Positions 1 to 15,732 of a stretch of DNA of 18,356 nucleotides are shown one piece after another; position 1 is the stretch's first letter, and each line of letters starts with the position of its first letter. Location: positions 2,056 through 20,411 of the forward strand of contig CAYUTF010000052.1 in NCBI GenBank assembly GCA_964447495.1, given 5' to 3'. The DNA is from an uncultured archaeon (GTDB lineage: Archaea; Asgardarchaeota; Lokiarchaeia; Sigyniarchaeales; SOKP01). The translations under genes were made by a program, and so were the position numbers. The notes under the pieces were generated by a model, which was given only the letters and a program-made list of their open reading frames with translations, was not told where the DNA came from and made no database searches.

Positions 1-346
1 TTCCGCAAACTGAATTGAGACGAATTTTCCCACCATCATAAGGCAATTCTTCTAGACCCCATAATAAGATTGGCTTTTTTATCTTTTTATTCAATTCTAA
101 TATTAAGTGTCCCAATGCAAAGGTACCGCTAATGCAAATTAATGCGTCTATTTGTCTCGCTGCTAATTGCTTCGCGGCTTTTTGAGCATCAGAGATCTCG
201 ATAACTAAATCTTCAATGAATTCCCAATTAACGTTTTCAATTGTTTCGAGATCTTGTCTAATTTGAGTATAAATCTGTCTCGCAGCTTCAAAATCAAAAG
301 TTTTACGAGCAATACAGACTACTCCAATATCAATTTCTTGTTTCAA
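1..346 (-). CDS. L-fucose/L-arabinose isomerase-family protein, N-terminal part (runs off the window edge); probable sulfoquinovose isomerase (SftI/SqvD-like)
   Basis: Not in the ORF track; translated by hand from TTG at 346: MKQEIDIGVVCIARKTFDFEAARQIY...DALICISGTFALGHLILEL...KPILLWGLEELPYDGGKIRLNSVCG, open to the window edge. RBS GAGGTGA at 352-358 overlaps the upstream stop codon. The GTF...PILLW..E...RLNS.CG pattern fits fucose-isomerase-like proteins. The SQ specificity is inferred from gene context. Confidence 0.75.
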   Translation of the reverse strand, partial: MKQEIDIGVVCIARKTFDFEAARQIYTQIRQDLETIENVNWEFIEDLVIEISDAQKAAKQLAARQIDALICISGTFALGHLILELNKKIKKPILLWGLEELPYDGGKIRLNSVCG

Positions 347-356
347 ATTTATCACC

Positions 357-1238
357 TCATACCATTTTCTCTAAGACCTTAATTGTCGCGGAAAAATCTT
401 CATTAGCATATTCTTTAATCCCTATATTATATATTTCTAATACCCTTTCTGCCCCCACTAAATTTAGGCCTAATTTTTGAGCAAAATCAATGATTAAATT
501 CATATCCTTATGCATATTTCTAAAGGAGAACTTTGGGCTGAAATCTCTATTTTTAATACTTTCAGCTTTCACGTCTAAATAAAAATTCTGACCTCCTCCT
601 GCAGCGATTCCTGAAACTATTTTATCATAATCAATCCCAGCCGCTTTAGCCAAAAGAATCATTTCATTAACACCATTTTGAATTATTCCTACTAACATAT
701 TATGACACATTTTCATGGCAAGACCTTTACCATTTTCCCCATAATAAATAATTTCTTCATTCTTTCCCATACATTCCAATATCAGTTTGATTTTTTGAAA
801 AGCCTCAAAATTACCACCAACATAAATCCCAAGATTCCCAGAAATAGCTGCGGCTTGACTTTTTACTACAGGTATATCCATCATAATGCTTCCAGACGCT
901 TTAACCTTTTTTGCTAATTCAATGGATACTGAAGGAGAAATTGTACTCATATCGATATATATCGTCCCATTTTTCATAAATGGAAGAAGCCCATTCACAA
1001 CTTCTTTTACATTATCATTAGTGGGAACCATGCTGATGATTACATCACAGTTTTCAGCAATATTTTGCAAATTATTACATGACGTTGCCCCCTCACTTGC
1101 TAATTTATCAACTTGCGTTTTATTTACATCATATACATATACGGGCCACTTTCCTTTTTTCAAAATATTACGGCACATATAAAATCCCATGGTCCCAATC
1201 CCAATAAATCCTATGACATACATTTTTTCCGCCTTCAT
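357..1238 (-). CDS. Beta-hydroxyacid dehydrogenase family (3-hydroxyisobutyrate DH/tartronate semialdehyde reductase-like); probable NADH-dependent sulfolactaldehyde reductase
   Basis: GFIGIGTMG Rossmann motif, Asp37 (NAD preference), IDMSTI, catalytic Lys in AMKMCHN, and F.P.F....MHKD C-terminal motif. The substrate loop is DIPVVKS instead of the usual DAPVSGG. Start overlaps the transaldolase stop (ATGA). Confidence 0.85.
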   Translation of the reverse strand: MKAEKMYVIGFIGIGTMGFYMCRNILKKGKWPVYVYDVNKTQVDKLASEGATSCNNLQNIAENCDVIISMVPTNDNVKEVVNGLLPFMKNGTIYIDMSTISPSVSIELAKKVKASGSIMMDIPVVKSQAAAISGNLGIYVGGNFEAFQKIKLILECMGKNEEIIYYGENGKGLAMKMCHNMLVGIIQNGVNEMILLAKAAGIDYDKIVSGIAAGGGQNFYLDVKAESIKNRDFSPKFSFRNMHKDMNLIIDFAQKLGLNLVGAERVLEIYNIGIKEYANEDFSATIKVLEKMV

Positions 1239-1903
1239 AATGAACCTAATTCAGTATCATCCCAAGCATCTTGGAATATTTTTAATCCTTTATCTGTGAA
1301 AGGATGTTCAAAACTAGCCTTATATACTTCAAATCCTGCGGTAACGATATCTGCCCCCATCACAGCAGCTTCAACTATTTGTTTACCATTTCTCACAGCA
1401 GCAATTATTATCTCTGTTTCAAAATCATAATTACGATATATTGCGATAATATCTGATATTAATTGGCTACAATCAACTCCTGTTGCTTCCTGCCATCCAA
1501 TAAACGGCGAACAATAAGCAGCTCCAATTCTACCTACCTGTAATGCTTGAGAAGCAGTAAATACTAATGTAACATTTACCTTAATTCCTTCTTTCGTTAG
1601 CTTATTAGCGGCGATCAACCCTTGTTCATTACAAGGTACTTTAATGACGAAATTATGTGATATTTCCGCAATCTTTTTTGCATACTGTACCATATCTTCT
1701 GTGGTAGAGAGGTGAGGATTGATTTCAACTGAAATTGGAAACTCTATACCGTCAAATTCTTTAGCAAATTCTCTAATTACAGAAAAGAATGGTTTACCGG
1801 AGTTTTTGATATGTTTAGGATTGGAAGTAACACCATTAATTTTCCAATTGTTTAATGCATATTTGATTTCATCAATTTTTGCACTATCTAAAAAATACTT
1901 CAT
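1235..1903 (-). CDS. Small-type transaldolase (TalC/FSA family); probable 6-deoxy-6-sulfofructose transaldolase (SftT/SqvA-like)
   Basis: FLDSA, GVTSNP, SVE, Schiff-base Lys88 in VIKVP, NVTLVF and HPFTDKGL motifs. It has SPFIGW where canonical enzymes have SPFVGR, plus NPK-H and AAVRN. RBS GGAGGA at 1909-1914. Confidence 0.9.
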   Translation of the reverse strand: MKYFLDSAKIDEIKYALNNWKINGVTSNPKHIKNSGKPFFSVIREFAKEFDGIEFPISVEINPHLSTTEDMVQYAKKIAEISHNFVIKVPCNEQGLIAANKLTKEGIKVNVTLVFTASQALQVGRIGAAYCSPFIGWQEATGVDCSQLISDIIAIYRNYDFETEIIIAAVRNGKQIVEAAVMGADIVTAGFEVYKASFEHPFTDKGLKIFQDAWDDTELGSL

Positions 1904-2059: not shown

Positions 2060-2551
2060 ATGATATCATTTCATGACAGTATGATTGAATATAGAAGTCA
2101 GCTAAAGAAAGGAATAATTCAGAAAGCTTACCGAGGATTAATGGAATATTTTGGATCGTTGAGATCATATTTTCACAAGAAATATCCCGATTATACTGTA
2201 TCAGGGAGTATTTATTTTGGATATATGGATATGACCTATTTTGCAGTCAGCCCACCTTTATTGAAAAATCGAAAATTGAAGATTGCGATTGTATTTCTGC
2301 ATAAAGAATTCAGATTTGAAGCGTGGTTGGGAGGTTACAATAAAACGATTCAGAAACAATACTGGGATTTGGTTAGGAAAAGAGGTTGGCATAAATACCG
2401 TATTCCATCAAATTTGAAAGGGATTGATTCTATAGTGGAACATGTTTTAGTTGACAATTCGGATTTTCGGGATTTAGATGCATTAACTATGCAAATCGAG
2501 AGAGGAACAATGAATTTCATAAAGGATGTTGAGGATTTTTTATCTCAATAG
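2060..2551 (+). CDS. Conserved hypothetical soluble protein
   Basis: 163-aa ORF with normal composition and a distinctive YFGYMDMTYF motif; first of three co-oriented genes. Confidence 0.75.
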   Translation: MISFHDSMIEYRSQLKKGIIQKAYRGLMEYFGSLRSYFHKKYPDYTVSGSIYFGYMDMTYFAVSPPLLKNRKLKIAIVFLHKEFRFEAWLGGYNKTIQKQYWDLVRKRGWHKYRIPSNLKGIDSIVEHVLVDNSDFRDLDALTMQIERGTMNFIKDVEDFLSQ

Positions 2552-2580
2552 TAAAGTACTACAAGATAGGAGAATAAAAT

Positions 2581-3357
2581 ATGCGAATAATAGATAGTCA
2601 TGCTCATATTTTCGATTCTACTGGCTATGTAGAAAATCTCATTAAAGCAATGGATGAGAATAATATTGAAAAAACTTGTGTAAGTGGATTAGGAAAACAT
2701 TTTAAGTGTATAGATAACCTGGGAATAAAGAAAGTTTTCGATGAGTATCCCGATCATTTTATTGGAGCTTATTATATCCGACCTGGATATAGTAAAGTCA
2801 GTGAAATTCACGATGCATTTGCTCAAGGATTTAAGATGCTAAAAATTACGCTACCCCAAAAGCCATATGATGATCCCTCTTACTTTCCCTTATGGGAATC
2901 TGCGGAAGAACTTAAACTACCGATTCTCTTTCATACTGGCGTGGTTACACTCATAAAACCCGCGAAGGAGGAATATATCTCATCCTGGTACATGCATCCT
3001 ATGAGAATCGAACCCATCGCTAATTCATTCCCTAAACTTAATATGATCATTGCCCATCTAGGAGTGCATTGGAACAAGGACGCGGCAGAGGTTATTAGGA
3101 TGAAAAAAAATGTGTATGCAGATCTCTCTGGAGCCCCAGAAGGTTGGAGAGTGAGAGCTGACAACATAGGTATGGATCATTATTTATGGTGGAAAGGGGC
3201 TTTTAAAAAAATTGTATTTGGAACAGATGTTTTTTATAATCAAATTTCTCAAATTCTTAATGAAGATAAAGATAGACTTGATAAATTAAACATTGACGAA
3301 AGTACACAAAAACTAATATTTTCTGGGAATATTTTAAAAATATTAGGTGAGAACTAG
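2581..3357 (+). CDS. Amidohydrolase family protein (Amidohydro_2-type TIM barrel)
   Basis: IIDSHAH (HxH), LFHTG, IAHLG, YADLS and FGTD metal-binding motifs; GGAG RBS upstream. Confidence 0.9.
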   Translation: MRIIDSHAHIFDSTGYVENLIKAMDENNIEKTCVSGLGKHFKCIDNLGIKKVFDEYPDHFIGAYYIRPGYSKVSEIHDAFAQGFKMLKITLPQKPYDDPSYFPLWESAEELKLPILFHTGVVTLIKPAKEEYISSWYMHPMRIEPIANSFPKLNMIIAHLGVHWNKDAAEVIRMKKNVYADLSGAPEGWRVRADNIGMDHYLWWKGAFKKIVFGTDVFYNQISQILNEDKDRLDKLNIDESTQKLIFSGNILKILGEN

Positions 3358-4206
3358 TTGAAAAAAAGAAGTGATGAAGTGCGAGCATTATTGGAACTAA
3401 TACCCGAAGATATCATCAAAAAAGCGGGAAACCATCTTATTGTATGTGAAAACTTAGAGGAATTACATCATCATTTTGCTCAAAGCATTTTCAGTGAGAT
3501 TCAATTAAATAATAGTGCTCATAACCCTACTAAATTAATTCTTCCTATAGGTCCAGTGGGACAATACCCAATATTACAAAAATTGATTGAAAAAGAAAAC
3601 CTTTCATTAGCACACTGTTGGTTCTTCTTCATGGATGAATATTGCGATGAGGATGGGTTTGCACTTTCTACGATCCATCCTTTAAGTTTTAAAAGAATTG
3701 CTAAAACGCTATTTTTAATTCCTTTAAAGGATAATTTTGGATTAAATGATGAACAAATAATCTTTCCAGGCGAAACAAATATTTCGAACATCTCAAATAT
3801 GATTGAAGATATTGGAGGGATAGATACATGTTACGGAGGAATTGGAATTCATGGACATATAGCTTTTAATGAACCCGCGCTCAATATTGCAGAATCTGAG
3901 CCTAGAAGAGTCCATTTAAACGATTTTACTATAACTATCAACTCTATAAGAGCACAAGTAGGAGGAAATATAGAAAACTTTCCAAAAGAGGCTTTCACGA
4001 TTGGGATGAAGCAAATATTAGGTGCACGCAGAATACGATTATATTGTAGAAACGGTACACCTTATGATTGGGCAAACACTATCTTAAGAATCGCTTTATT
4101 TGGAAAACCGGGGGATGATTATCCGGTAACTTACATTCGAAATCATCCCGATTATGTAATTATCACTGATTCTGATACGTTAAAAACTCCAGAAGTACCC
4201 TTATAA
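3358..4206 (+). CDS. Glucosamine-6-phosphate deaminase/isomerase (NagB-like) family protein
   Basis: FFMDEY, GGIDTCYGGIGIHGHIAFNEP, P..AFTIGMKQILGARRI and YPVT motifs. The TTG start directly abuts the upstream TAG. Confidence 0.85.
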   Translation: MKKRSDEVRALLELIPEDIIKKAGNHLIVCENLEELHHHFAQSIFSEIQLNNSAHNPTKLILPIGPVGQYPILQKLIEKENLSLAHCWFFFMDEYCDEDGFALSTIHPLSFKRIAKTLFLIPLKDNFGLNDEQIIFPGETNISNISNMIEDIGGIDTCYGGIGIHGHIAFNEPALNIAESEPRRVHLNDFTITINSIRAQVGGNIENFPKEAFTIGMKQILGARRIRLYCRNGTPYDWANTILRIALFGKPGDDYPVTYIRNHPDYVIITDSDTLKTPEVPL

Positions 4207-5179: not shown

Positions 5180-6628
5180 GTGTCAGAATCAAATTCTAAT
5201 GAGATTTTAGACGAAAGTCCCGAGGATATGGAATTTCTCCCTTATGAACCAAGGATGAAACCGTCCAAACCTGATTCTCTCTCAGTAAAGAGGACTATCT
5301 TCATATCTTTTGCATTTTTCATCGTGTTATTAGCATGGTCTTATTTTAATTTTAAGGTTCCACTGTTACTTAATGATATATTAATTGGAAATCCATTTCT
5401 TGATTTGATTAAGGGATTAGTTATGGCAATAGATAATGTCATAGCGGTGATATTGCAACCTTACTTTGGAGATCTAAGTGATAGAACAAAAAGCAGATTT
5501 GGGAGAAGAATGCCTTATATCATTATTGGGACAACAACTTCAGTAGTGTTTTTTGTTCTCATTCCATTTGTTCAATTTTTTGCCGGATTGGTTCTAGTAA
5601 TTTTTCTCTTTGATCTTGCAATGTCGATTTATCGCTCAGCATCTATTGCAATTCTTCCTGATTATACCTCTCAGAAAGTATATTCTAAAGGAAGTGCGAT
5701 ACAACAATTTATTGCAAATTTAGGTGGTTTGGTTGGTTTTATCATTCCTATAGTTGCTGGTGCGATACCTGGGTTATCTGGAGTATTATTTGATGCAATA
5801 GGATTCATTATAGGCGGGACTTTAATGTTAGTATTATTAGGGATTCATGTGTTAACTGTAAAAGAAACTCCCACAGGAGATAAATTTTTACAACTATCAG
5901 ATAAAAAAATTGAAATTGATGTTGATACTTACAAAGCTAAAGAATCCATAGAAACGATCGGAGAAATACGTAAGAAAGGTAAAATATTAATCTCCTATAG
6001 GCAATCCATTAAAATAGTTAGAAATCATAGAGATTTTGCATATTTCCTTGCAACCATATTCTTTATGTATTTAGCTTTTGCCTCAGTTGAGTCTTTCTTT
6101 TCAAGTTTTGCAGTTCAATACATTGGAATTCCAGAATCAGCGGCAGCAACATTGTTTATAGCATATTCAGGACCCATGATTTTATTTGCTTACTTTGTGG
6201 GACTATTAGGACAATGGAAAAAAGTTGGAAGGAGGAATGCAATTAAAATTTATCTTATATGGTTAATTATTTCAGTTGCTATCATGGCGTTCTTTATAGT
6301 TCCTATGATTTATAAAAATCATCAACCCATTTTAGTAATGATCATGTTAGCATTAACTTCAATACCATGGATGGGCTTTATTGTTATCAGTTTTTCGATT
6401 CTCTGGGCATTAGCTCCAGAGGGGAAAAAAGGAATTTATACAGGCATTTATTACACTTTTAACCAAGCGGCATATGCTTTAGCTCCTGTAATTTTTGGCG
6501 GAATTCTCACATCGCTTTCCTTCCTTTCAGACTATCGCTATATTGTGATGTTTCCTTTCATTTTAATCTGTATATTGATCGCATTTCTTCTCTTTCTTCC
6601 AATCAAAAGCGGAGAAGTAAAAGAATAA
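5180..6628 (+). CDS. MFS transporter (GPH/oligosaccharide-type)
   Basis: About 12 hydrophobic segments; QPYFGDLSDRTKSRFGRRMPYI motif; GTG start. Confidence 0.9.
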   Translation: MSESNSNEILDESPEDMEFLPYEPRMKPSKPDSLSVKRTIFISFAFFIVLLAWSYFNFKVPLLLNDILIGNPFLDLIKGLVMAIDNVIAVILQPYFGDLSDRTKSRFGRRMPYIIIGTTTSVVFFVLIPFVQFFAGLVLVIFLFDLAMSIYRSASIAILPDYTSQKVYSKGSAIQQFIANLGGLVGFIIPIVAGAIPGLSGVLFDAIGFIIGGTLMLVLLGIHVLTVKETPTGDKFLQLSDKKIEIDVDTYKAKESIETIGEIRKKGKILISYRQSIKIVRNHRDFAYFLATIFFMYLAFASVESFFSSFAVQYIGIPESAAATLFIAYSGPMILFAYFVGLLGQWKKVGRRNAIKIYLIWLIISVAIMAFFIVPMIYKNHQPILVMIMLALTSIPWMGFIVISFSILWALAPEGKKGIYTGIYYTFNQAAYALAPVIFGGILTSLSFLSDYRYIVMFPFILICILIAFLLFLPIKSGEVKE

Positions 6629-6698: not shown

Positions 6699-7847
6699 TT
6701 AAGGGACTTCAATTAATTTTGATCGTGTTAATACTTCAATCTTACCGTTTCTGACCATCACATCATTTTCAATTCGTATTCCACCAATTCCTTGCTTGTA
6801 AATTCCAGGTTCAATTGTAAATACCATCCCTTCTTCCACTAAAATTTCTTTCCAATACTTTAAAGCATATTCATCTTTAGGTTTACGGCTTATTATCGGT
6901 GAATCATGCTCACTTAACCCCAATCCGTGTCCAAGAGAATAGGGCATAGAATAACCTTCGTTTTTAAGGATCTGCTCTACATAATCATGAATTTTCCAGA
7001 GAGGGACTCCTATATCTACCATTTCTATGGCACCTTCATATGTTTGCAATACAATCTCCAAAATTTTCTCTTGTTCTTTCGTTAAATTACCGAATTTAAA
7101 AGGCACGGTTATATCGGAGTGATAACCTTGGTATTTTGCCCCAAAGTCGATTAATGCTAAACCGGGTAAGGCAAATTTTTGATTGGTAGCAAAAGGATAA
7201 CAATGCATTTCATGAGCACGAGAAGAATTCGCTACTAGCGAATCAAATGCGATATCTTCAGCCCCATATTCTGCTATTTTTTGCCGTACAAGGAAGGAAA
7301 GATCATTTTCAGTCCCATTAGAAGAATTGTAGGCAAAATTTTCAATATCCTTTATTGCCTTATTTCCAATTTCAGCTGCTTTCGTAAGTTGTTTTAATTC
7401 AAAATCAGATTTTGTTGCTCGTAATTCACCTAAAATTGTGTCTAATTTTCTTGGTTCCTTGAAAAATTTGACATTTGAGATTAAAGCCTTCATTTTTATT
7501 ACAAACCCATAAGGAAAATTCTTACAGATGCCAATTATTGTTTTAGAATCTCCAAATTTCTTCTTGATTATTTCTTTAAGAATTAAAATAACATTGTATT
7601 CATAATTGCTAATATCAAATATCTCATCAGCCTCTGCATACTTCTCCGCTATTGACAGATCCCAAGGGATTAAAAAAGACTCTCCATTGGATGTAATTAA
7701 AACCATCCCATCAGAAGGTTGCCCCGATAAATAACGCAAGTTTATACTTGGTGAGTCCTCATAATCAGCAACAAATAATGCTTGAATTTCATTTTGCTGT
7801 AAAAAATTCACTAAAATATCATATTTTTCTTTGGATATCGATCTCAT
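6699..7847 (-). CDS. Xaa-Pro peptidase (M24B, prolidase/aminopeptidase P family)
   Basis: DFGAKYQGYHSDIT, GHGLGL.EHD, TIEPGIY and RIEND metal-ligand motifs. Confidence 0.92.
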   Translation of the reverse strand: MRSISKEKYDILVNFLQQNEIQALFVADYEDSPSINLRYLSGQPSDGMVLITSNGESFLIPWDLSIAEKYAEADEIFDISNYEYNVILILKEIIKKKFGDSKTIIGICKNFPYGFVIKMKALISNVKFFKEPRKLDTILGELRATKSDFELKQLTKAAEIGNKAIKDIENFAYNSSNGTENDLSFLVRQKIAEYGAEDIAFDSLVANSSRAHEMHCYPFATNQKFALPGLALIDFGAKYQGYHSDITVPFKFGNLTKEQEKILEIVLQTYEGAIEMVDIGVPLWKIHDYVEQILKNEGYSMPYSLGHGLGLSEHDSPIISRKPKDEYALKYWKEILVEEGMVFTIEPGIYKQGIGGIRIENDVMVRNGKIEVLTRSKLIEVP

Positions 7848-7956
7848 ATTTCAGCTCTTAATATAATATGCTTTTATTTATCAATAAAAAAAAGAAAAAA
7901 GGATTTCATTTATAATTAATTGATTGAATTTTAATCGATTCTACTTTAATTGTAAT

Positions 7957-9351
7957 CTAACTAGAACTCGTTTTTACTTTCTCTTTCCTTTCTTCATGGA
8001 GGATTATTAATTTCTGCTGCATTTCATTAAAAGTTTTAAGATTAATAGGATAGAAATAGAAAGAGATAGAAGCAATAATTCCCCCTAATAATGGAACAAG
8101 TGAAACTAATATCCTTAATCCAATAACAGCTGATTCGGGTTGCAATGAAGGATCTTCAATTTCTTGGTCAAATCCAGTATATACTTGTACTAAGATAATA
8201 GTTATACCTGAAAGAACCATAGATAGTCGAGCGATTAAAGTTAGAATTCCATTATAAGTCGCTTCTCGTCGTTTCTTTGTTTTCAATTCGTCATAATCAA
8301 TTGAAGCACTAATGGCAGGCTCTGTCATTAGCATACCACAGATTCCAAAACCAGGAATAATGGTGACAATGAGTAGTATAGTTAAATTATCTACAAGAAA
8401 TATTGGCCAAATTGTCAAGCTATAGAATATAAGCGCATATAATAATCCTAACTTAGGTCCTTTTTTTGCATACATCCATCTCCATAGTGGAACAGATGCT
8501 ATGATTCCGATTGCTACTCCAGCAGCCGCAAAACCTTCCATTCCTTCAGAAACAAGAAGATAATATTTTGCATACAATGGTAGAACCATTATTGTTAAAC
8601 CAAATGTAAAGTCTATTAGCATATAAGTTAAAGTAATTATCAAGAAAGATTTATTAGATAAGGTTTCTTTGAAAGCAGAAATGAAAGACAATGGTTTGTC
8701 AATTTGATACTCTTTCTTCTCACGGCTACCACGAATTGATAAGAGCATTGTTATGGGTATAAATAATCCTATTATTAAACCCGTCAAATCCCAATTTATT
8801 GCTGCTGCTAAAAGGGGTGGTATTAGGATTCCAATAAATGAAGATATAAAAGCAATTAAATCTTTAATTGCGACAACATTTGCTCTTTCTTTTTCCGTCT
8901 CATACATTTCAGTATATAATGCTGACCAGCTTGTCATACATAATGTAAAACCTAGATCAAAAAGAAATAACATTATTAGACAATGAACAAAGATTAATCC
9001 TTGAGCTGAACTTGGATAGGGAACCCACCATAAAAATATGAAACCTATGGTCATTGGGATTGTGCCATATATTATATATGGTATTCTTCTTCCTTTCTTT
9101 AAATGAAACCTATCCATGAGAAATCCTATTAACGGATCATTCACAGCATTCCAAATTCCATAAATTATCCATACTAATCCGAATAAGAGAGGATCTAACA
9201 TTACAACGGTTTCATAAAATAACAAAACACTCGCTGAGATCATATTATATGGAAGCGCTGATGGGACTGCACCAAGAGAATATAAAAGATGACCTCGGGA
9301 AGAATGAACTTTATCTACTGGATCTTTATTTTTCTTTCTCACATTTATCAA
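7957..9351 (-). CDS. MFS transporter, glycoside-pentoside-hexuronide (MelB/UidB-like) family
   Basis: WNAVNDPLIGFLMDR, GRRIPYI, IDYDELKTKKRREATYNG and C-terminal YPI motifs; about 12 TM segments; TTG start. Confidence 0.9.
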   Translation of the reverse strand: MINVRKKNKDPVDKVHSSRGHLLYSLGAVPSALPYNMISASVLLFYETVVMLDPLLFGLVWIIYGIWNAVNDPLIGFLMDRFHLKKGRRIPYIIYGTIPMTIGFIFLWWVPYPSSAQGLIFVHCLIMLFLFDLGFTLCMTSWSALYTEMYETEKERANVVAIKDLIAFISSFIGILIPPLLAAAINWDLTGLIIGLFIPITMLLSIRGSREKKEYQIDKPLSFISAFKETLSNKSFLIITLTYMLIDFTFGLTIMVLPLYAKYYLLVSEGMEGFAAAGVAIGIIASVPLWRWMYAKKGPKLGLLYALIFYSLTIWPIFLVDNLTILLIVTIIPGFGICGMLMTEPAISASIDYDELKTKKRREATYNGILTLIARLSMVLSGITIILVQVYTGFDQEIEDPSLQPESAVIGLRILVSLVPLLGGIIASISFYFYPINLKTFNEMQQKLIILHEERKEKVKTSSS

Positions 9352-9377
9352 TTTTCATATTTTTTTTAATTGAAAAA

Positions 9378-9412
9378 TTTGTACATTCAAATCTTATTTG
9401 AATAAGTACAAA
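9378..9412 (-). other. Intergenic inverted repeat (15-bp stem, 2-nt bulge, 3-nt loop) between the HPS-like gene and the transporter
   Basis: TTTGTAC-ATTCAAAT-ctt-ATTTGAAT-aa-GTACAAA; on the minus strand it is followed by TTTTT (9373-9377). Confidence 0.5.
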
Positions 9413-9423
9413 ATATAAATAAA

Positions 9424-10089
9424 TTATTTTTCTAACTTATTAATTAAGCTTTTGATTTCTTCAGCAACCATAGTTGGATTCTGTGCGTGAGTAATTGCTC
9501 CGCCCACTATAATAATGGCTATGGGAAATTTCATTATGGGTTTTATATCTATTGCTCTAATTCCTCCTGCAATAGCCAATTTTGGATGATTTGGTATTTT
9601 TGCCATGGATTCTATTTCTGTTAGGGGAGCTCTTCTTGAAGATTGACGATCTAATCCACTGTGAGCTAAGGCATAAGTTAGTTTTTTCCCTTTATAGTTA
9701 AGATCCATTATTTCCTTTAATCGCTTAATAGGAGAACGTGAAACAATCAAATCTGCCATAATCTCAACCTTGTATTCAAATGAAGCACGTAACGCCTCCT
9801 CGATTGTATTATCATAAGCATCAGCAAGAATAGAAATGATATCAGCTTTAGCTTTAGCTGCCATTTTTACTTCAAGATATCCTGCGTCTGCGGTTTTTAA
9901 ATCAGCACATATTATTTTATTTGGATAAGTATTTTTTAATGTTTTAACTGCATTTATGCCTTCAGATTTTATTAATGGGGTTCCTGCTTCTATAATATCA
10001 ATAAAAGGAGCTACTTGACGTGCAATATTTAAGGCATCTTCTATATCTTCAAGATCAAGTGCAACTTGTAATTTTGGAGTTGAGCTCAT
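9424..10089 (-). CDS. 3-hexulose-6-phosphate synthase / 3-keto-L-gulonate-6-P decarboxylase family (OMPDC suprafamily)
   Basis: LQVALD, IIEAGTPLIKSEG, ADLKTADAG (DxKxxD), HSGLD.Q, AIAGGI and IIVGGAIT motifs. Confidence 0.88.
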   Translation of the reverse strand: MSSTPKLQVALDLEDIEDALNIARQVAPFIDIIEAGTPLIKSEGINAVKTLKNTYPNKIICADLKTADAGYLEVKMAAKAKADIISILADAYDNTIEEALRASFEYKVEIMADLIVSRSPIKRLKEIMDLNYKGKKLTYALAHSGLDRQSSRRAPLTEIESMAKIPNHPKLAIAGGIRAIDIKPIMKFPIAIIIVGGAITHAQNPTMVAEEIKSLINKLEK

Positions 10090-10108
10090 AATTTTATCTT
10101 AATTTAAT

Positions 10109-11188
10109 TTATATTATATTTTCTTTAAACATTTTTTGATTTACTTCTACTCCAAGACCAGGTTTTTCTAAAGCTTTCACTATTCCATTAACACACCTAA
10201 TTGGTTCTTCAAGTACTTGAAACTCATCGGGGATAAACGGAAATTCGCACCAATCACACCGTGACGCCATAATGAAATGCAGATTGGCTGCTAAAATATG
10301 TCCAAAGCCAAATATGTGGGGTATGCAGCGAACACCCTTTACTTCTGCCATAGCATCAATCTTTTTCAGTTGTAAAAAACCCCCACTTCTACACACATCA
10401 GGTTGAACAATATCATAGCACCCTTTCGAAAGAATATCTTCAAATCGGAATATTCCCATATCATTTTCTCCCCCTGCAATCTCTATAGGGGATTGGCTTC
10501 TTAGAGCAGCGAGTCCGTTTAAATTATCAGATGGTAATGGTTCTTCTAACCAACAAATATTATACTTCTCACAAATTTTTGTTAACTTAACTGCTTCTCG
10601 TAATTGAGTATATGCAGAATTTGCATCTAACATTATATCGATATCAGGAAAATTATCGCGAACTTCTTTAATCAACTCCTCATCTTTTTTTAAACCTTTT
10701 CCGATTCTTAGTTTTACCGCTTTAAAGGCGCCTAAATCAATAGCAGATTGCACAACTTTTGCTACTGCTTTTGCTTTGTAGCTTCGAGGCATTGAAGCAT
10801 ACGCTCTTATTTCCTTTTTCATCCCTCCTAACAACTTATATATTGGTTGTTTAGTCGCTTTTCCAATAATATCCCATAAAGCTACCTGTATTACACTAGT
10901 CGCCATAGGAATCCCAAACATAATACGATTGCTATTATGGTATACAGTTTGAAAAATATCCTCCACCATAAATGGGTCTTTTCTGATTAGTAAATGTTTC
11001 AAAGATTCGTCAATAAGCATTTTTTGCCCGAGATTACTTAAGTTCCAATGCGATAATGCCCACCCTTCAACATCTTCATCTGTTTTAATATTTAAATAGA
11101 GACCAGTCACATTGAATGCAGGCATGGAACCAAGTTTGAGTTTGAAATCTAACTTCAATACATAGGTTTTAACATCAGTTATAATCAT
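10109..11188 (-). CDS. Mandelate racemase/muconate lactonizing enzyme family (probable acid-sugar dehydratase)
   Basis: ALWDIIGK...PIYKLLGG, KLRIG (KxR), metal ligands in LDAN/WLEEP/GGEN, QPD, PH and PGLG motifs. Confidence 0.9.
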   Translation of the reverse strand: MIITDVKTYVLKLDFKLKLGSMPAFNVTGLYLNIKTDEDVEGWALSHWNLSNLGQKMLIDESLKHLLIRKDPFMVEDIFQTVYHNSNRIMFGIPMATSVIQVALWDIIGKATKQPIYKLLGGMKKEIRAYASMPRSYKAKAVAKVVQSAIDLGAFKAVKLRIGKGLKKDEELIKEVRDNFPDIDIMLDANSAYTQLREAVKLTKICEKYNICWLEEPLPSDNLNGLAALRSQSPIEIAGGENDMGIFRFEDILSKGCYDIVQPDVCRSGGFLQLKKIDAMAEVKGVRCIPHIFGFGHILAANLHFIMASRCDWCEFPFIPDEFQVLEEPIRCVNGIVKALEKPGLGVEVNQKMFKENII

Positions 11189-13057: not shown

Positions 13058-14500
13058 ATGCCAATTGGTATAAAAAGTTATGGAGCATATTTGCCAAAAT
13101 ACTTGCTCCCGAGAGATCTTATTGCGAAAGCTTGGGATTTTCCAAATGTTCCTGGTACAAAAGCAATTGCGATGGCTGATGAAGATAGTATTACCATGTC
13201 TGTGGAAGCGGGATTAGACTGCTTAGCAGGAATCGATCCTAAAACTGTCGATGGAATTTTCTTTGCTTCTACGACTCAAGTATATACAGAAAAGGATTCT
13301 GCCTCACTAATTGCTACTGTGCTAGATATGAGAGAAGATATAATAACTGTTGATTTTACAGATTCCACCAAAGCCGCTACTACTGCTCTTACGCGAGCGG
13401 TAGATACCATAAAAGCAAATAAGGATATAAAAAGCATTCTTGTCGTTTCTGCAGATACCAGAGCACCCGAGCCTTCCACAATGTGGGAATTTGGATTCGC
13501 AGATGGCGCTGCCGCACTTCTTGTGGCTGAAGAAGATAATCTTCCCTTATCTATCGAAGATTATTATTCAATCTCTGCAAATGTTACGGGACCTTGGAAA
13601 AGAGCAAATAAGGATAAATTTATTCGAACTTTCGAAGTTAAAATGGATGCGAAATTCTACGTAGAAAGTATCACTAAAGTAATGGCAGAAATACTTAAAA
13701 GAAATAATCTCAAACCTGAAGAAATCGATGCTGCAGCATATTACTATAATAACCCACGAATGCATGGACGAATCTCAAAAATTATGAAATTTGGACAAGG
13801 TGTTGCTCAAAATAGCCTATTCTTTCAAATAGGCGACACAGGTACACCTATGCCTTTCATGCTATTAATCGCGGCTCTTAGAAGACCTAAAGATGACGCA
13901 AAAATAATTATGACTGGCTATGGCGATGGTGCTGATGCTATCTTACTACAAGTACGCGATAAAGGCGCATTACGAGACCTTGGAAAATCACGATTAGGGC
14001 TTATTGGTCATCAAAAATCTATGATAATCACTAATAACTATAATAAATTTGTGGATTTCAAAGAATTACTTGAAAAAGATAGATACATCCGAAAAAGCTC
14101 CGCTGTGACCGTATGGAGAGATACTGCCTCGGTTTATAAATGGTACGGTGTTAAATGTAAGAATTGTGGAACAGTCCAATATCCTGACCTCTCTCGATCG
14201 TGTTATGTATGCAGAGCTGATGACCCATTCGAACATGTAAAACTTTTACTCCACGGAACGATATTTACTTACACCCTTGACCACTTAGTGGGTGGTGCGT
14301 ATCTTCAAACTCCCGTGCCTCGATGTGTTATCGATTTAGATGGCGGTGGTAGAGTTCTACTTAATATGACTGAAATCGAAAATCCTGAGGAAAATGTCCA
14401 TATTGGGATGAAAGTCGAGATGACCTTCAGAAAAGAACACGAAGGTGCCGAATTTAAAAATTATTATTGGAAATGTAGACCCGAAAGGGGGAGAAAATAA
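13058..14500 (+). CDS. KASIII/HMG-CoA-synthase-like domain fused to DUF35 (Zn-ribbon + OB-fold) domain
   Basis: GIKSYGAYLP, DEDSITM, FASTT, DGAAALL, IGDTG and GYGDGADA motifs. C-terminal CKNC...CYVC zinc ribbon and GTIFTYT...GGRV...IGMKVEMTFR...YYWK OB-fold. RBS GAGGT at 13042-13046. Confidence 0.9.
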   Translation: MPIGIKSYGAYLPKYLLPRDLIAKAWDFPNVPGTKAIAMADEDSITMSVEAGLDCLAGIDPKTVDGIFFASTTQVYTEKDSASLIATVLDMREDIITVDFTDSTKAATTALTRAVDTIKANKDIKSILVVSADTRAPEPSTMWEFGFADGAAALLVAEEDNLPLSIEDYYSISANVTGPWKRANKDKFIRTFEVKMDAKFYVESITKVMAEILKRNNLKPEEIDAAAYYYNNPRMHGRISKIMKFGQGVAQNSLFFQIGDTGTPMPFMLLIAALRRPKDDAKIIMTGYGDGADAILLQVRDKGALRDLGKSRLGLIGHQKSMIITNNYNKFVDFKELLEKDRYIRKSSAVTVWRDTASVYKWYGVKCKNCGTVQYPDLSRSCYVCRADDPFEHVKLLLHGTIFTYTLDHLVGGAYLQTPVPRCVIDLDGGGRVLLNMTEIENPEENVHIGMKVEMTFRKEHEGAEFKNYYWKCRPERGRK

Positions 14501-14514: not shown

Positions 14515-15732
14515 ATGGCAAGAAAAGGTATTAGTGATAAAGTAGCAATCATCGGCTGCGATATGACAAAATATGGTGAACTATGGGATAAAAGTCAATA
14601 CGACCTGCTCTTCGAGGCAGTTCAATCCGCGACAAAAGATGCCGGAATTACCAAAGATGAGATTGATGCGACCTGGATCGGTATATTTTACTTTTTTACC
14701 GGCTTATCCGGTGCAATGGTAGAAGATATATTAAAGCTAGATGGAAAACCCGCTACTCGTATAGAAAATTACTGTGCTTCGGGAATGGACGCTTTCAGAA
14801 ATGCAAGCTTCGCCATTGCTTCTGGTGCATACGATGTAGCTCTCGCTTGTGGAGTAGAGAAGCTCATGGACGAAGGTGGAAGTGGTTTACCCGGATTCAC
14901 TTTATTTGGGCATCCATTATACCCTACTCCATCAGCACCAGCTATGTTTTCGATGGCAGCAACAAGATGTTTCCACGAGTTTGGTTGGACAAAGGAGGAT
15001 TTAGCCCGAGTTGCGGTAAAGAATCATGACAATGGTTCCTATCATCCAAAAGCACACTTTCGAAGCAAGATTACAATTGAGGCTGCGATGAAAGCACCAA
15101 TGATTGCTGACCCTCTGGGCCGATTCGACTGCTGCGCAAAAAATTAGCTAATTAAGCTAATTTACGTAGTGTCAGACGGATCTGCCGCACTAATTCTTAC
15201 AACGCCCGAATTAGCAGAGAGTTATGCCCACGCAGATGACTACATTCTCGTAAAAGCAAATGCGATCTCATGTAGGACTAATTTCCCATGGTATGTTCCC
15301 GCAAACGGGCCTGGTGCCGACTTTACATCCTTTCCGTCCACAGTACAAGCTGCACAATATGCGTATAAAGAAGCAGGAATTACTGATCCTCGCAAGCAAA
15401 TTGATTGCGCAGAGGTACATGACTGTTTCACAATAACTGAACTAGTAAATTGCCAGGATCTACAATTTTGCGATCGTGGTAAAGCAGCTGAGGAATTAAA
15501 GAATGGAACATTTAACTGGGATGGTGAGACTGCTGTGAATCCGTCAGGCGGACTTAAGTCTTTTGGTCATCCTATTGGATCAACAGGCTGTCGTATGCTA
15601 ACCGAAATCACAAAACAATTACAAGGACGCGCAGAAGGTCGCCAAGTTCCCGATGCTAAGATTGGCTTATGCCATAACCTTGGTGGCGCATTTAGTGTGT
15701 GTTCTACGACCGTATTAAGTCAACGAGATTAA
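14515..15732 (+). CDS. SCP2-type thiolase (acetyl-CoA acetyltransferase family), interrupted by a 30-nt in-frame stop-containing insert; 395 aa if the insert is removed
   Basis: ORFs 14515-15147 and 15169-15732 are in the same frame and are the two halves of one thiolase. Motifs: ENYCASG (catalytic Cys), GVEK, KNH.NG..HP.AH, DCCA|(M/V)SDGSAA, EVHDCFT, NPSGG, GHPIGSTG, HNLGG. No other lesion was seen. Confidence 0.9.
15140..15169 (+). other. Candidate BHB-type archaeal mRNA intron (30 nt)
   Basis: 9-bp hairpin AAATTAGCT/AGCTAATTT; 3-nt bulges AAA (15138-15140) and AGT (15168-15170) flank a 4-bp helix GCGC/ACGT (one C-A mismatch); exon-exon helix 15122-15133/15171-15182. Excision restores DCCAMSDG. 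Confidence 0.6.

Follow-up and report, generated by a model that had tools for sequence, protein, structure and literature searches.

A candidate sulfo-TAL sulfoglycolysis operon in an Asgard archaeal genome

Introduction

Sulfoquinovose is an abundant sulfur sugar of plants and algae. One described route for its breakdown, the sulfo-transaldolase (sulfo-TAL, or sulfo-SFT) pathway of Bacillus aryabhattai/B. megaterium and Eubacterium rectale, uses SftG, SftI, SftT, SftR or SftD, SftX and transporters, as set out in the excerpts available of PMC7491151 and PMC11968277. Here we describe a transaldolase (TAL) operon at the left end of an 18,356-nt stretch of DNA from an uncultured Asgard archaeon (assembly GCA_964447495.1, genome G000; contig CAYUTF010000052.1, C52, positions 2056–20411). 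This stretch is referred to as the window, and coordinates are those of the window unless a contig or locus is named. The operon probably encodes reductive sulfo-TAL sulfoglycolysis, leading from a sulfoquinovose glycoside to 2,3-dihydroxypropanesulfonate (DHPS); this reading is drawn from homology, conserved residues and gene linkage (gene order, coupling and distribution among genomes).

Two 2026 reviews (PMC12890257, PMC13436972) treat sulfoquinovose breakdown as bacterial in the passages available, one of them stating that archaea and eukaryotes have no characterised pathway, and in the available text of PMC13436972 (July 2026) archaea appear only in connection with biosynthesis. Among the matches listed, a literature search combining sulfoquinovose with Asgard lineages gave no report of archaeal degradation, these papers being concerned with N-glycans/N-glycosylation or making a passing mention, and a search combining sulfoglycolysis, archaea and metagenome-assembled genomes (MAGs) likewise returned none on archaeal degradation; both covered sources other than subscription journals and supplements.

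Results

A four-gene operon across a scaffold gap

The left end of the window contains three leftwards-read open reading frames (minus strand). The first is a Trp-type (sulfofructose-type) TAL of 222 aa (1235–1903; Pfam TAL_FSA, 150 bits), followed by an NAD-type beta-hydroxyacid dehydrogenase of 293 aa (357–1238; Pfam NAD_binding_2 and NAD_binding_11), a proposed SftR-like sulfolactaldehyde reductase, and the N-terminal 118 aa of an SftI-like isomerase (2–355; NCBIfam NF048012) that continues leftwards across a scaffold gap. The TAL and reductase genes share 4 nt and the isomerase starts 1 nt past the reductase stop, in line with the coupled trio of transaldolase, beta-hydroxyacid reductase and fucose-isomerase-family protein recognised in an earlier reading of the window made without database searches (the sequence-only reading).

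The scaffold gap is a run of 100 N just left of window base 1 (L003:1956–2055) and both of its flanks are the same 55-nt stretch; the isomerase is therefore one intact gene of ~440 aa. The other 341 aa of the protein (L003:933–1955) share 18 residues with the window part, and on 12 full-length archaeal orthologues the two pieces join without interruption. The fourth gene, directly left of the window and sharing 19 nt with the isomerase, encodes a glycoside hydrolase family 31 (GH31) glycosidase. It leaves contig C52 after 316 aa and resumes on contig C5 (73.5 kb), the first 55 nt of which are the reverse complement of the first 55 nt of C52. Both 55-nt repeats seem to be overlaps that the assembler left unmerged, the isomerase and GH31 genes being divided only on paper. 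With gene overlaps of 4 nt and 19 nt, a single 1-nt spacing and the GH31 gene resuming on C5, the transaldolase, reductase, isomerase and glycosidase genes constitute one translationally coupled operon. The window and its left flank are syntenic with another locus, L004, over 13 genes with 59–91% identity.

The transaldolase groups with sulfofructose transaldolases

The window TAL is closer to characterised sulfofructose (SF) transaldolases than to any ordinary TAL or fructose-6-phosphate aldolase (FSA). Its best PDB matches are three Priestia megaterium SF transaldolase (BmSF-TAL) sequences (8bc2–4; 8bc3 with E 1.4e-91 and 309 bits), whereas the best ordinary TAL (1vpx) scores 165 bits and FSA about 75 bits. 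Identity to BmSF-TAL is ~64% (a hand count of 139 among the 217 residues aligned in the PDB search), and the protein scores under every NCBIfam TAL/FSA cut-off.

The residues on which the sequence-only reading relied are all seen in the protein: it starts with MKYFLDSA and has Lys30 (NPKH), Trp137 (SPFIGW) and Arg171 (AAVRNGKQ), where the aligned sites of 8bc3 are MKYFLDSA, NPRH, SPFVGW and AALRNGKQ. The account of Snow et al. 2023 in the available part of PMC11659671 gives BmSF-TAL catalytic residues D6, E61 and K89, sugar-orienting residues N111 and S133, and a sulfonate-orienting Trp/Ala/Arg 'WAR' motif. Their counterparts are all kept (D6, E60, K88, N110, S132, W137 and AAVR171). The window enzyme thus has the catalytic triad Asp6/Glu61/Lys89 (BmSF-TAL numbering) on a TAL_FSA fold, and Trp in place of the phosphate-binding Arg together with the Ala and Arg of 'WAR'.

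Eighty loci retrieved with the TAL protein were divided into 38 of SF type (at least 48% identity) and 42 with ordinary TALs. Trp occupies the phosphate-Arg site in 38/38 SF-type loci and in 0/42 ordinary TALs, all 42 of which have Arg, so that the residue match to BmSF-TAL is not a matter of chance. All SF-type loci contain NP[KR]H, GW[QK]E and R-x-x-x-Q/H, and all ordinary ones NP[ST]L, GR[LH]DD and R-x-x-x-H. Among protein representatives the SF-TAL family forms two full-length 50%-identity clusters, plus fragments.

A maximum-likelihood tree was built from 71 sequences: the window TAL, the 38 SF-type loci, 14 of 120 Bacilli-type proteins listed from a family of roughly 2,600 members and, as outgroup, 18 of the 42 ordinary TALs. 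The tree does not include the remaining 24 ordinary TALs or 119 other close TAL homologues. In it the Trp type forms a single clade with 100/100 support, split from the ordinary TALs. Placement with SF transaldolases and not with TalC/FSA, as in the sequence-only reading, is borne out both by this split and by the scores of 309 versus 165 bits.

The isomerase, reductase and glycosidase

SftI (NF048012) is the only NCBIfam match of the isomerase, with 49.6 bits for the window part and 182 bits for the remainder at L003:933–1955. The L004 orthologue aligns along the full length of the model (positions 4–427 of 443), with 230 bits. A PDB sequence search with the isomerase gave no match, and there is a weak match to Pfam Fucose_iso_C. 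An AlphaFold model of the L004 protein (predicted local distance difference test, pLDDT, 85.6; predicted template modelling score, pTM, 0.89) has template modelling (TM) scores of 0.87 to L-arabinose isomerase and ~0.80 to L-fucose/D-arabinose isomerases. The predicted fold is AraA/FucI-like, and assignment to the fucose-isomerase family, made earlier from the letters, holds through the weak Fucose_iso_C match and the model (TM 0.80–0.87). The isomerase thus combines full-length collinear SftI homology and a predicted AraA/FucI fold with a genomic partnership with SF-type TALs, and by sequence it belongs to a distant SftI-like subfamily.

The reductase is 32% identical to E. coli YihU, its K176 aligns with the YihU catalytic Lys171, and the GxGxxG and VYD motifs are kept; it has the NAD-binding beta-hydroxyacid dehydrogenase fold with the catalytic Lys. 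It is 51% identical to the reductase in the same position of a Fusobacteriaceae cluster (L035), with which it has the PVVKS and K-x-C-H-N (His/Val) pattern in common.

The six best PDB matches of the GH31 protein include annotated sulfoquinovosidases, E. coli YihQ and other YihQ-type entries (E down to 3e-118), the next-best match being YicI (E 5e-36); its C-terminal half matches E. coli YihQ with E 1.8e-116. The L004 orthologue (79–80% identical) scores 773 bits against the YihQ-type model PRK10426 (cut-off 553), and the two halves of the window operon's own protein score 267 and 492 bits. The L004 orthologue is thus a member of the YihQ subfamily, with counterparts of the catalytic Asp405/Asp472, and the printed alignments contain GH31 counterparts of E. 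coli Q288, W304, D405, D472 and Y508.

Host genome, distribution and origin

The G000 bin comprises 3.8 Mb, with a completeness of 98.4% and a contamination of 3.75%. Archaeal and bacterial small-subunit rRNA models both gave no match in it. It encodes ribosomal protein S8e, which among the control genomes was matched only in four archaeal ones, and four actin-family proteins, the best with 442 bits to the eukaryotic actin model. The profilin model gave no match in G000, but was silent in all control genomes too. The best 120 TAL homologues are 74–88% identical, and all those with a named organism are MAGs of Promethearchaeota/Lokiarchaeota, Hodarchaeota or Hermodarchaeota. The genome is archaeal and Asgard-like (S8e, actin); S8e, actin and the named close homologues uphold the 'archaeon-like genome' of the sequence-only reading.

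Of the 38 SF-type loci, 27 are archaeal (TAL 66–85% identical), some on contigs of 122–504 kb, and 11 are bacterial; bacterial TALs related to the Trp type come from Desulfobacterales, SAR324, Chloroflexota and Firmicutes. Beside the TAL, the archaeal loci have an isomerase in 21 cases (one only a fragment), a GH31 gene in 14 and a reductase in four.

The phylum was scanned in 400 genomes; as relatives among them do not count as independent, the numbers are given without a statistic. A TAL match is present in 168 genomes and absent from 232. The matches are bimodal: 38 genomes have the Trp type (64–100% identity, E ≤1.5e-95), among them a single-contig 6.0-Mb genome (G138), and the rest have ordinary TALs (≤42%, best E 2.7e-46). 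In G138 the TAL and isomerase genes are separated by 6 kb. The system is common to about a tenth of sampled Asgard species. Within the genus of the window, G000 aside, the 41 genomes divide into 10 with the Trp type, 10 with an ordinary TAL and 21 without a TAL match, so an accessory rather than a housekeeping gene fits. Several genomes contain both types (e.g. G173, G275, G151 and G162). The isomerase is found in 47 of the 400 genomes, which comprise 35 of the 38 with a Trp-type TAL and 12 of the 362 others.

Chloroflexota and Planctomycetota are basal within the Trp type in the tree. The main archaeal clade contains 24 rows (94/97 support), and a Firmicutes/Fusobacteria clade (100/99) joins Desulfobacterales, SAR324 and two archaeal rows at 89/89, with two further archaeal rows unplaced. 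A tree constrained to join the 28 archaeal rows is worse by 13.6 log-likelihood units, and the approximately unbiased (AU) test does not reject it (p-AU 0.234). By the tree, gene transfer between domains clearly happened. Transfer from Firmicutes and transfer from archaea were both rejected as stated directions, since the tree and the AU test (p 0.234) support neither. The earlier suggestion that the genes came 'probably via gene transfer from bacteria' is not borne out: archaeal sequences occur next to the Firmicutes clade as well as below it, and grouping all of them in one clade has p-AU 0.234.

Divergent module, transporters and other neighbours

A 156-nt AT-rich intergenic region (1904–2059) separates the TAL operon from a divergently read module of three genes (2060–4206, plus strand) and presumably contains promoters facing both ways. 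The module encodes a DUF7000 protein (2060–2551; Pfam PF22526, 195 bits), found in the same place in L004, an Amidohydrolase_2 family protein (2581–3357; Pfam PF04909, 76 bits) and a NagB-like (glucosamine-6-phosphate deaminase-like) protein (3358–4206; NCBIfam nagB, 84 bits, under cut-off). An Amidohydrolase_2 gene adjoins the TAL in 6 of the 27 archaeal loci.

The NagB-like protein keeps the deaminase catalytic motifs MDEY and GHIAFNEP and has lost the TGGT phosphate loop; its atlas clusters are only generic '6-phosphogluconolactonase / glucosamine-6-phosphate isomerase family' ones. Of the 400 phylum genomes, 26 have the gene; the isomerase accompanies it in every one of these and a Trp-type TAL in 22. 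G178, G212, G270 and G271 have the NagB-like gene and the isomerase close together without a Trp-type TAL, and the pair may also feed a different cleavage enzyme. A Planctomycete TAL of Trp type is directly followed by a NagB-like homologue (54% identical).

Downstream of the GH31 gene on C5 is a sulfatase with an N-sulphoglucosamine-sulphohydrolase-type C-terminal domain (L087:2462–3763, minus strand). A sulfatase with 61–63% identity lies within 10 kb of a Trp-type TAL in 7 of the 27 archaeal loci (L004, L013, L014, L017, L018, L020 and L021). A 239-aa protein of no clear family, with a weak Ribul_P_3_epim match, follows the GH31 gene (L087:1109–1828, minus strand, on C5) and is kept at or near the same position in L004, L006 and L013 (55–82% identity). 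Locus L013 has an NAD-dependent GH4 glycosidase (L013:10166–11557) downstream of the isomerase, where others have GH31; this may be an alternative entry glycosidase.

Of two candidate transporter genes in the window, one encodes a major facilitator superfamily (MFS) protein (5180–6628, plus strand; Pfam MFS_1), a candidate sugar importer or DHPS exporter with orthologues in L004 (83%) and L006 (64%). The other encodes a GPH-family (MFS_2) symporter (7957–9351, minus strand; Pfam MFS_2, 193 bits). E. coli YihO and YihP belong to this family, and the window protein has 23% identity to the former (E 3e-18) and 21% to the latter. Orthology with YihO/YihP was rejected, as an identity of 21–25% is a family-level match only. 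Directly upstream of the TAL of a Promethearchaeia locus are six tandem GPH-family paralogues (L005:445–9862). The operon contains no AEC-type exporter and the nearest copy in G000 is elsewhere, on C47; seven archaeal loci have an AEC-type transporter between TAL and isomerase. Two loci have a molybdopterin oxidoreductase (sulfite-oxidase/MsrP type) fused to a DUF4079 membrane domain (L006:10787–11839 and L008:7095–8147) between TAL and isomerase, a position like that of the window reductase.

The GPH symporter gene is part of a second sugar-related block (6699–11188, minus strand), along with genes for an M24 peptidase, an enolase-superfamily sugar-acid dehydratase and a protein resembling 3-hexulose-6-phosphate synthase, which at 198.7 bits lies just under the cut-off of 200; the synthase-like and dehydratase genes recur in L004. 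Further right is a 3-hydroxy-3-methylglutaryl-CoA (HMG-CoA) synthase with a C-terminal fusion to a DUF35-type zinc ribbon and OB fold (zf-ChsH2, OB_ChsH2; 13058–14500, plus strand), directly upstream of an archaeal-type thiolase (14515–15732, plus strand). The HMG-CoA synthase region has a G+C content of 38–41%, against 26–35% in the rest of the window. The thiolase is cut into two in-frame open reading frames by a TAG at 15145–15147, inside an AT-rich insert of ~30 nt with the direct repeat GCTAATT, and the NCBIfam model is continuous across it (215 to 216); the split may reflect a small insertion, pseudogene formation or a fault in the assembly.

Discussion

Proposed pathway

The sequence-only reading had proposed a sulfo-TAL pathway, and this proposal is supported by the grouping of the TAL, the SftI match, the adjoining GH31 gene and the archaeal genome. 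Homology and gene order suggest that the GPH or MFS transporter would import a sulfoquinovosyl glycoside, e.g. sulfoquinovosyl glycerol, from which the YihQ-type GH31 would free sulfoquinovose. The SftI-like isomerase of predicted AraA/FucI fold would convert this to 6-deoxy-6-sulfofructose, and the Trp-type TAL would pass the C3 unit that lacks the sulfonate to glyceraldehyde 3-phosphate by way of a Schiff base on Lys88; the products would be fructose 6-phosphate and sulfolactaldehyde. Fructose 6-phosphate would enter glycolysis, while the reductase would convert sulfolactaldehyde to DHPS for export. Reduction of sulfolactaldehyde would also re-oxidise glycolytic NADH, and so may serve as an internal electron sink for a fermenting, syntrophic archaeon.

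Several features of the four enzymes and their setting weigh against this assignment. The TAL has Lys30 instead of the BmSF-TAL Arg30, as in all 27 archaeal and 5 of the 11 bacterial SF-type loci, and as the sole TAL_FSA gene in the genome it may have a second, housekeeping role. The isomerase does not reach the SftI equivalog cut-off of 700 bits (L004 orthologue, 230) and is only 26–28% identical to bacterial SftI-type genes (L029, L031, L035, L037 and L039; 32% for L038). The bacterial SftI of the canonical cluster L035 is likewise under the cut-off, at 406 bits, indicating that the model is narrow. The kinship to SftI/SqvD anticipated by the sequence-only reading is supported, SftI being the sole NCBIfam match, but the protein is a divergent variant and no plain orthologue.

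The YihU sulfonate pocket consists of Asn174 and Ser178 in the available part of PMC8006165, and the reductase has His179 and Val183 at these positions. It scores 157 bits against the YihU model PRK15461 (cut-off 348), less than the 195 bits it obtains with tartronate-semialdehyde reductase models, and a reductase adjoins the TAL in only 4 of the 27 related archaeal loci. The sulfonate motif of sulfoquinovosidases is Q/E-R-W-Y (Q288, R301, W304 and Y508) according to the available sections of PMC12780224 and PMC8006165. The window GH31 has Gln278 at the sulfonate-binding Arg301, which is Arg in all solved sulfoquinovosidases. Of 15 archaeal GH31 proteins examined, not one has a complete Arg301-Trp304-Tyr508 triad: Gln301 is found in nine (together with Tyr508 in seven and Phe508 in two) and the remaining six pair Arg301 with Phe508, and the bacterial GH31 proteins of L035 and L039 have the full Arg-Trp-Tyr. 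An active GH31 sulfoquinovosidase without the motif is described in the same part of PMC12780224, and loss of the triad would on that account be compatible with sulfoquinovosidase activity. Both enzymes are divergent variants and not plain orthologues of YihU and YihQ.

DUF4867 (SftX, PF16161) gave no match in the G000 or L004 genomes, the same search finding it in the L035 genome. The neighbourhood left of the window, to which the sequence-only reading had drawn attention, thus proved only partly as expected, with a YihQ-type GH31 directly adjoining and transporters nearby but no DUF4867. Together with the incomplete GH31 triad, the divergent module and the sulfatase, this leaves room for a range of substrates wider than, or other than, sulfoquinovose itself. 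The NagB-like gene and the sulfatase that recur beside the clusters make another anionic sugar possible.

Alternative explanations

Such a sugar is the substance of one alternative, that the operon degrades either a different 6-sulfo sugar, for instance glycosides of sulfofucose or sulforhamnose, or else an amino sugar or one with a 6-O-sulfate. The chemistry would be the same, with cleavage of the glycoside, aldose-ketose isomerisation and a transaldolase step that leaves an anionic C3 aldehyde. We regard this as unlikely. The glycosidases could be read in this way, since no archaeal GH31 of 15 has the full triad (nine with Gln at Arg301, six with Arg and Phe at Tyr508), as could the distance of the isomerase subfamily from bacterial SftI, the conserved sulfatase near the cluster in 7 of 27 archaeal loci, the strict association of the NagB-like homologue with the isomerase (26/26 genomes) and the Planctomycete Trp-type TAL directly followed by a NagB-like gene. 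However, the TAL keeps all reported sugar- and sulfonate-orienting residues of BmSF-TAL, the GH31 is far nearer to sulfoquinovosidases than to any other solved GH31, a GH31 sulfoquinovosidase lacking the motif is active (PMC12780224, available part), and sulfoquinovose is by far the most abundant candidate substrate.

An ordinary pentose-phosphate enzyme, with neighbours serving an unrelated neutral sugar and a superficial likeness to sulfo-TAL, is a very improbable explanation. Naming sources do call such proteins plain 'transaldolase', and this is the sole TAL_FSA gene in a genome that is 98.4% complete. Yet Trp replaces the phosphate-binding Arg that 42/42 ordinary TALs keep, the tree splits the two types with 100/100 support, 35 of the 38 genomes with the Trp type also contain the SftI-like isomerase and some genomes carry both types (G173, G275, G151 and G162). 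TAL also seems dispensable in the genus, 21 of 41 genomes of which have no TAL match. Bacterial contamination of the bin is more improbable still. G000 is a MAG with an estimated 3.75% contamination and rRNA models without a match, and related TALs do occur in Desulfobacterales, SAR324, Chloroflexota and Firmicutes, but TALs with 66–85% identity are present in 27 loci of independently binned archaeal MAGs, some on contigs of 122–504 kb, and the Trp type is held by 38 of 400 phylum genomes including the single-contig 6.0-Mb genome. Synteny with L004 extends over 13 genes, the 55-nt overlap links C52 to the 73.5-kb contig C5, and the window contains the HMG-CoA synthase–DUF35-type fusion beside a thiolase. 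In the mevalonate synthesis of archaea, DUF35 works jointly with thiolase and HMG-CoA synthase.

Significance

If the sulfo-TAL assignment is correct, a conserved operon of this type in Asgard archaea would add a whole domain to the sulfoquinovose degradation cycle, and sediment Asgard archaea would be DHPS producers for sulfite-respiring partners. Asgard archaea are very hard to grow, and sulfoquinovose is a candidate selective enrichment substrate. For 38 of the 168 phylum genomes with a TAL match, the protein named 'transaldolase' probably acts outside the pentose-phosphate pathway. The triad-less glycosidases and His/Val-pocket reductases are natural variants for studying sulfonate recognition.

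A broader picture is speculative and, taken as a whole, rather improbable. Sulfoglycolysis would extend beyond bacteria, with about a tenth of sampled Asgard species fermenting sulfoquinovose and using sulfolactaldehyde as electron sink. The system would have two entries, a NagB-like ring-opening isomerase/deaminase with the amidohydrolase, DUF7000 and the sulfatase supplying the same TAL with anionic sugars of a second class (amino or sulfated); the GH31 would bind sulfonate without the triad, and the Firmicutes enzymes would be one offshoot of a family diversified among sediment anaerobes including Asgard archaea.

Comparison with known systems

The locus probably represents a variant form of a known pathway, carried by an Asgard archaeon. 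BmSF-TAL (Priestia/Bacillus megaterium; PDB 8bc2, 8bc3, 8bc4 and 8c4i) and the window TAL are alike in the MKYFLDSA start and in the catalytic, sugar-orienting and sulfonate-motif residues, but the window protein has a one-residue deletion after position 54 and Lys30 rather than Arg30. Ordinary TalC/FSA enzymes (1vpx, 3s0c and 1l6w) are also TIM-barrel TAL_FSA proteins of ~220 aa with a Schiff-base Lys; they differ in an identity of only 39–46% and in their motifs, NP[ST]L, GR[LH]DD and R-x-x-x-H corresponding to NPKH, GWQE and RNGKQ of the window protein.

The E. coli yih cluster for sulfoglycolysis of the Embden-Meyerhof-Parnas type (sulfo-EMP) similarly contains a YihQ-type GH31, a YihU-fold reductase with the catalytic Lys and GPH-family transporters. 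It differs from the window operon, which has a transaldolase in place of kinase and aldolase, an isomerase with a fold other than that of YihS, Gln for YihQ Arg301 and His/Val for YihU Asn174/Ser178. The closest resemblance is to the bacterial sulfo-TAL pathway, the canonical layout of which (TAL-reductase-SftI-DUF4867-transporter-GH31) is seen in the Fusobacteriaceae cluster L035. Both have a GH31, an isomerase of AraA/FucI fold (predicted here), a Trp-type TAL and, as in the reductive E. rectale variant, a reductase within one operon, and neither has a kinase or aldolase. The window system is set apart by its Asgard host, distant isomerase, lack of DUF4867 (SftX), Gln at GH31 Arg301 and TAL Lys30, and by the divergent DUF7000/Amidohydrolase_2/NagB-like module and sulfatase beside the Asgard cluster.

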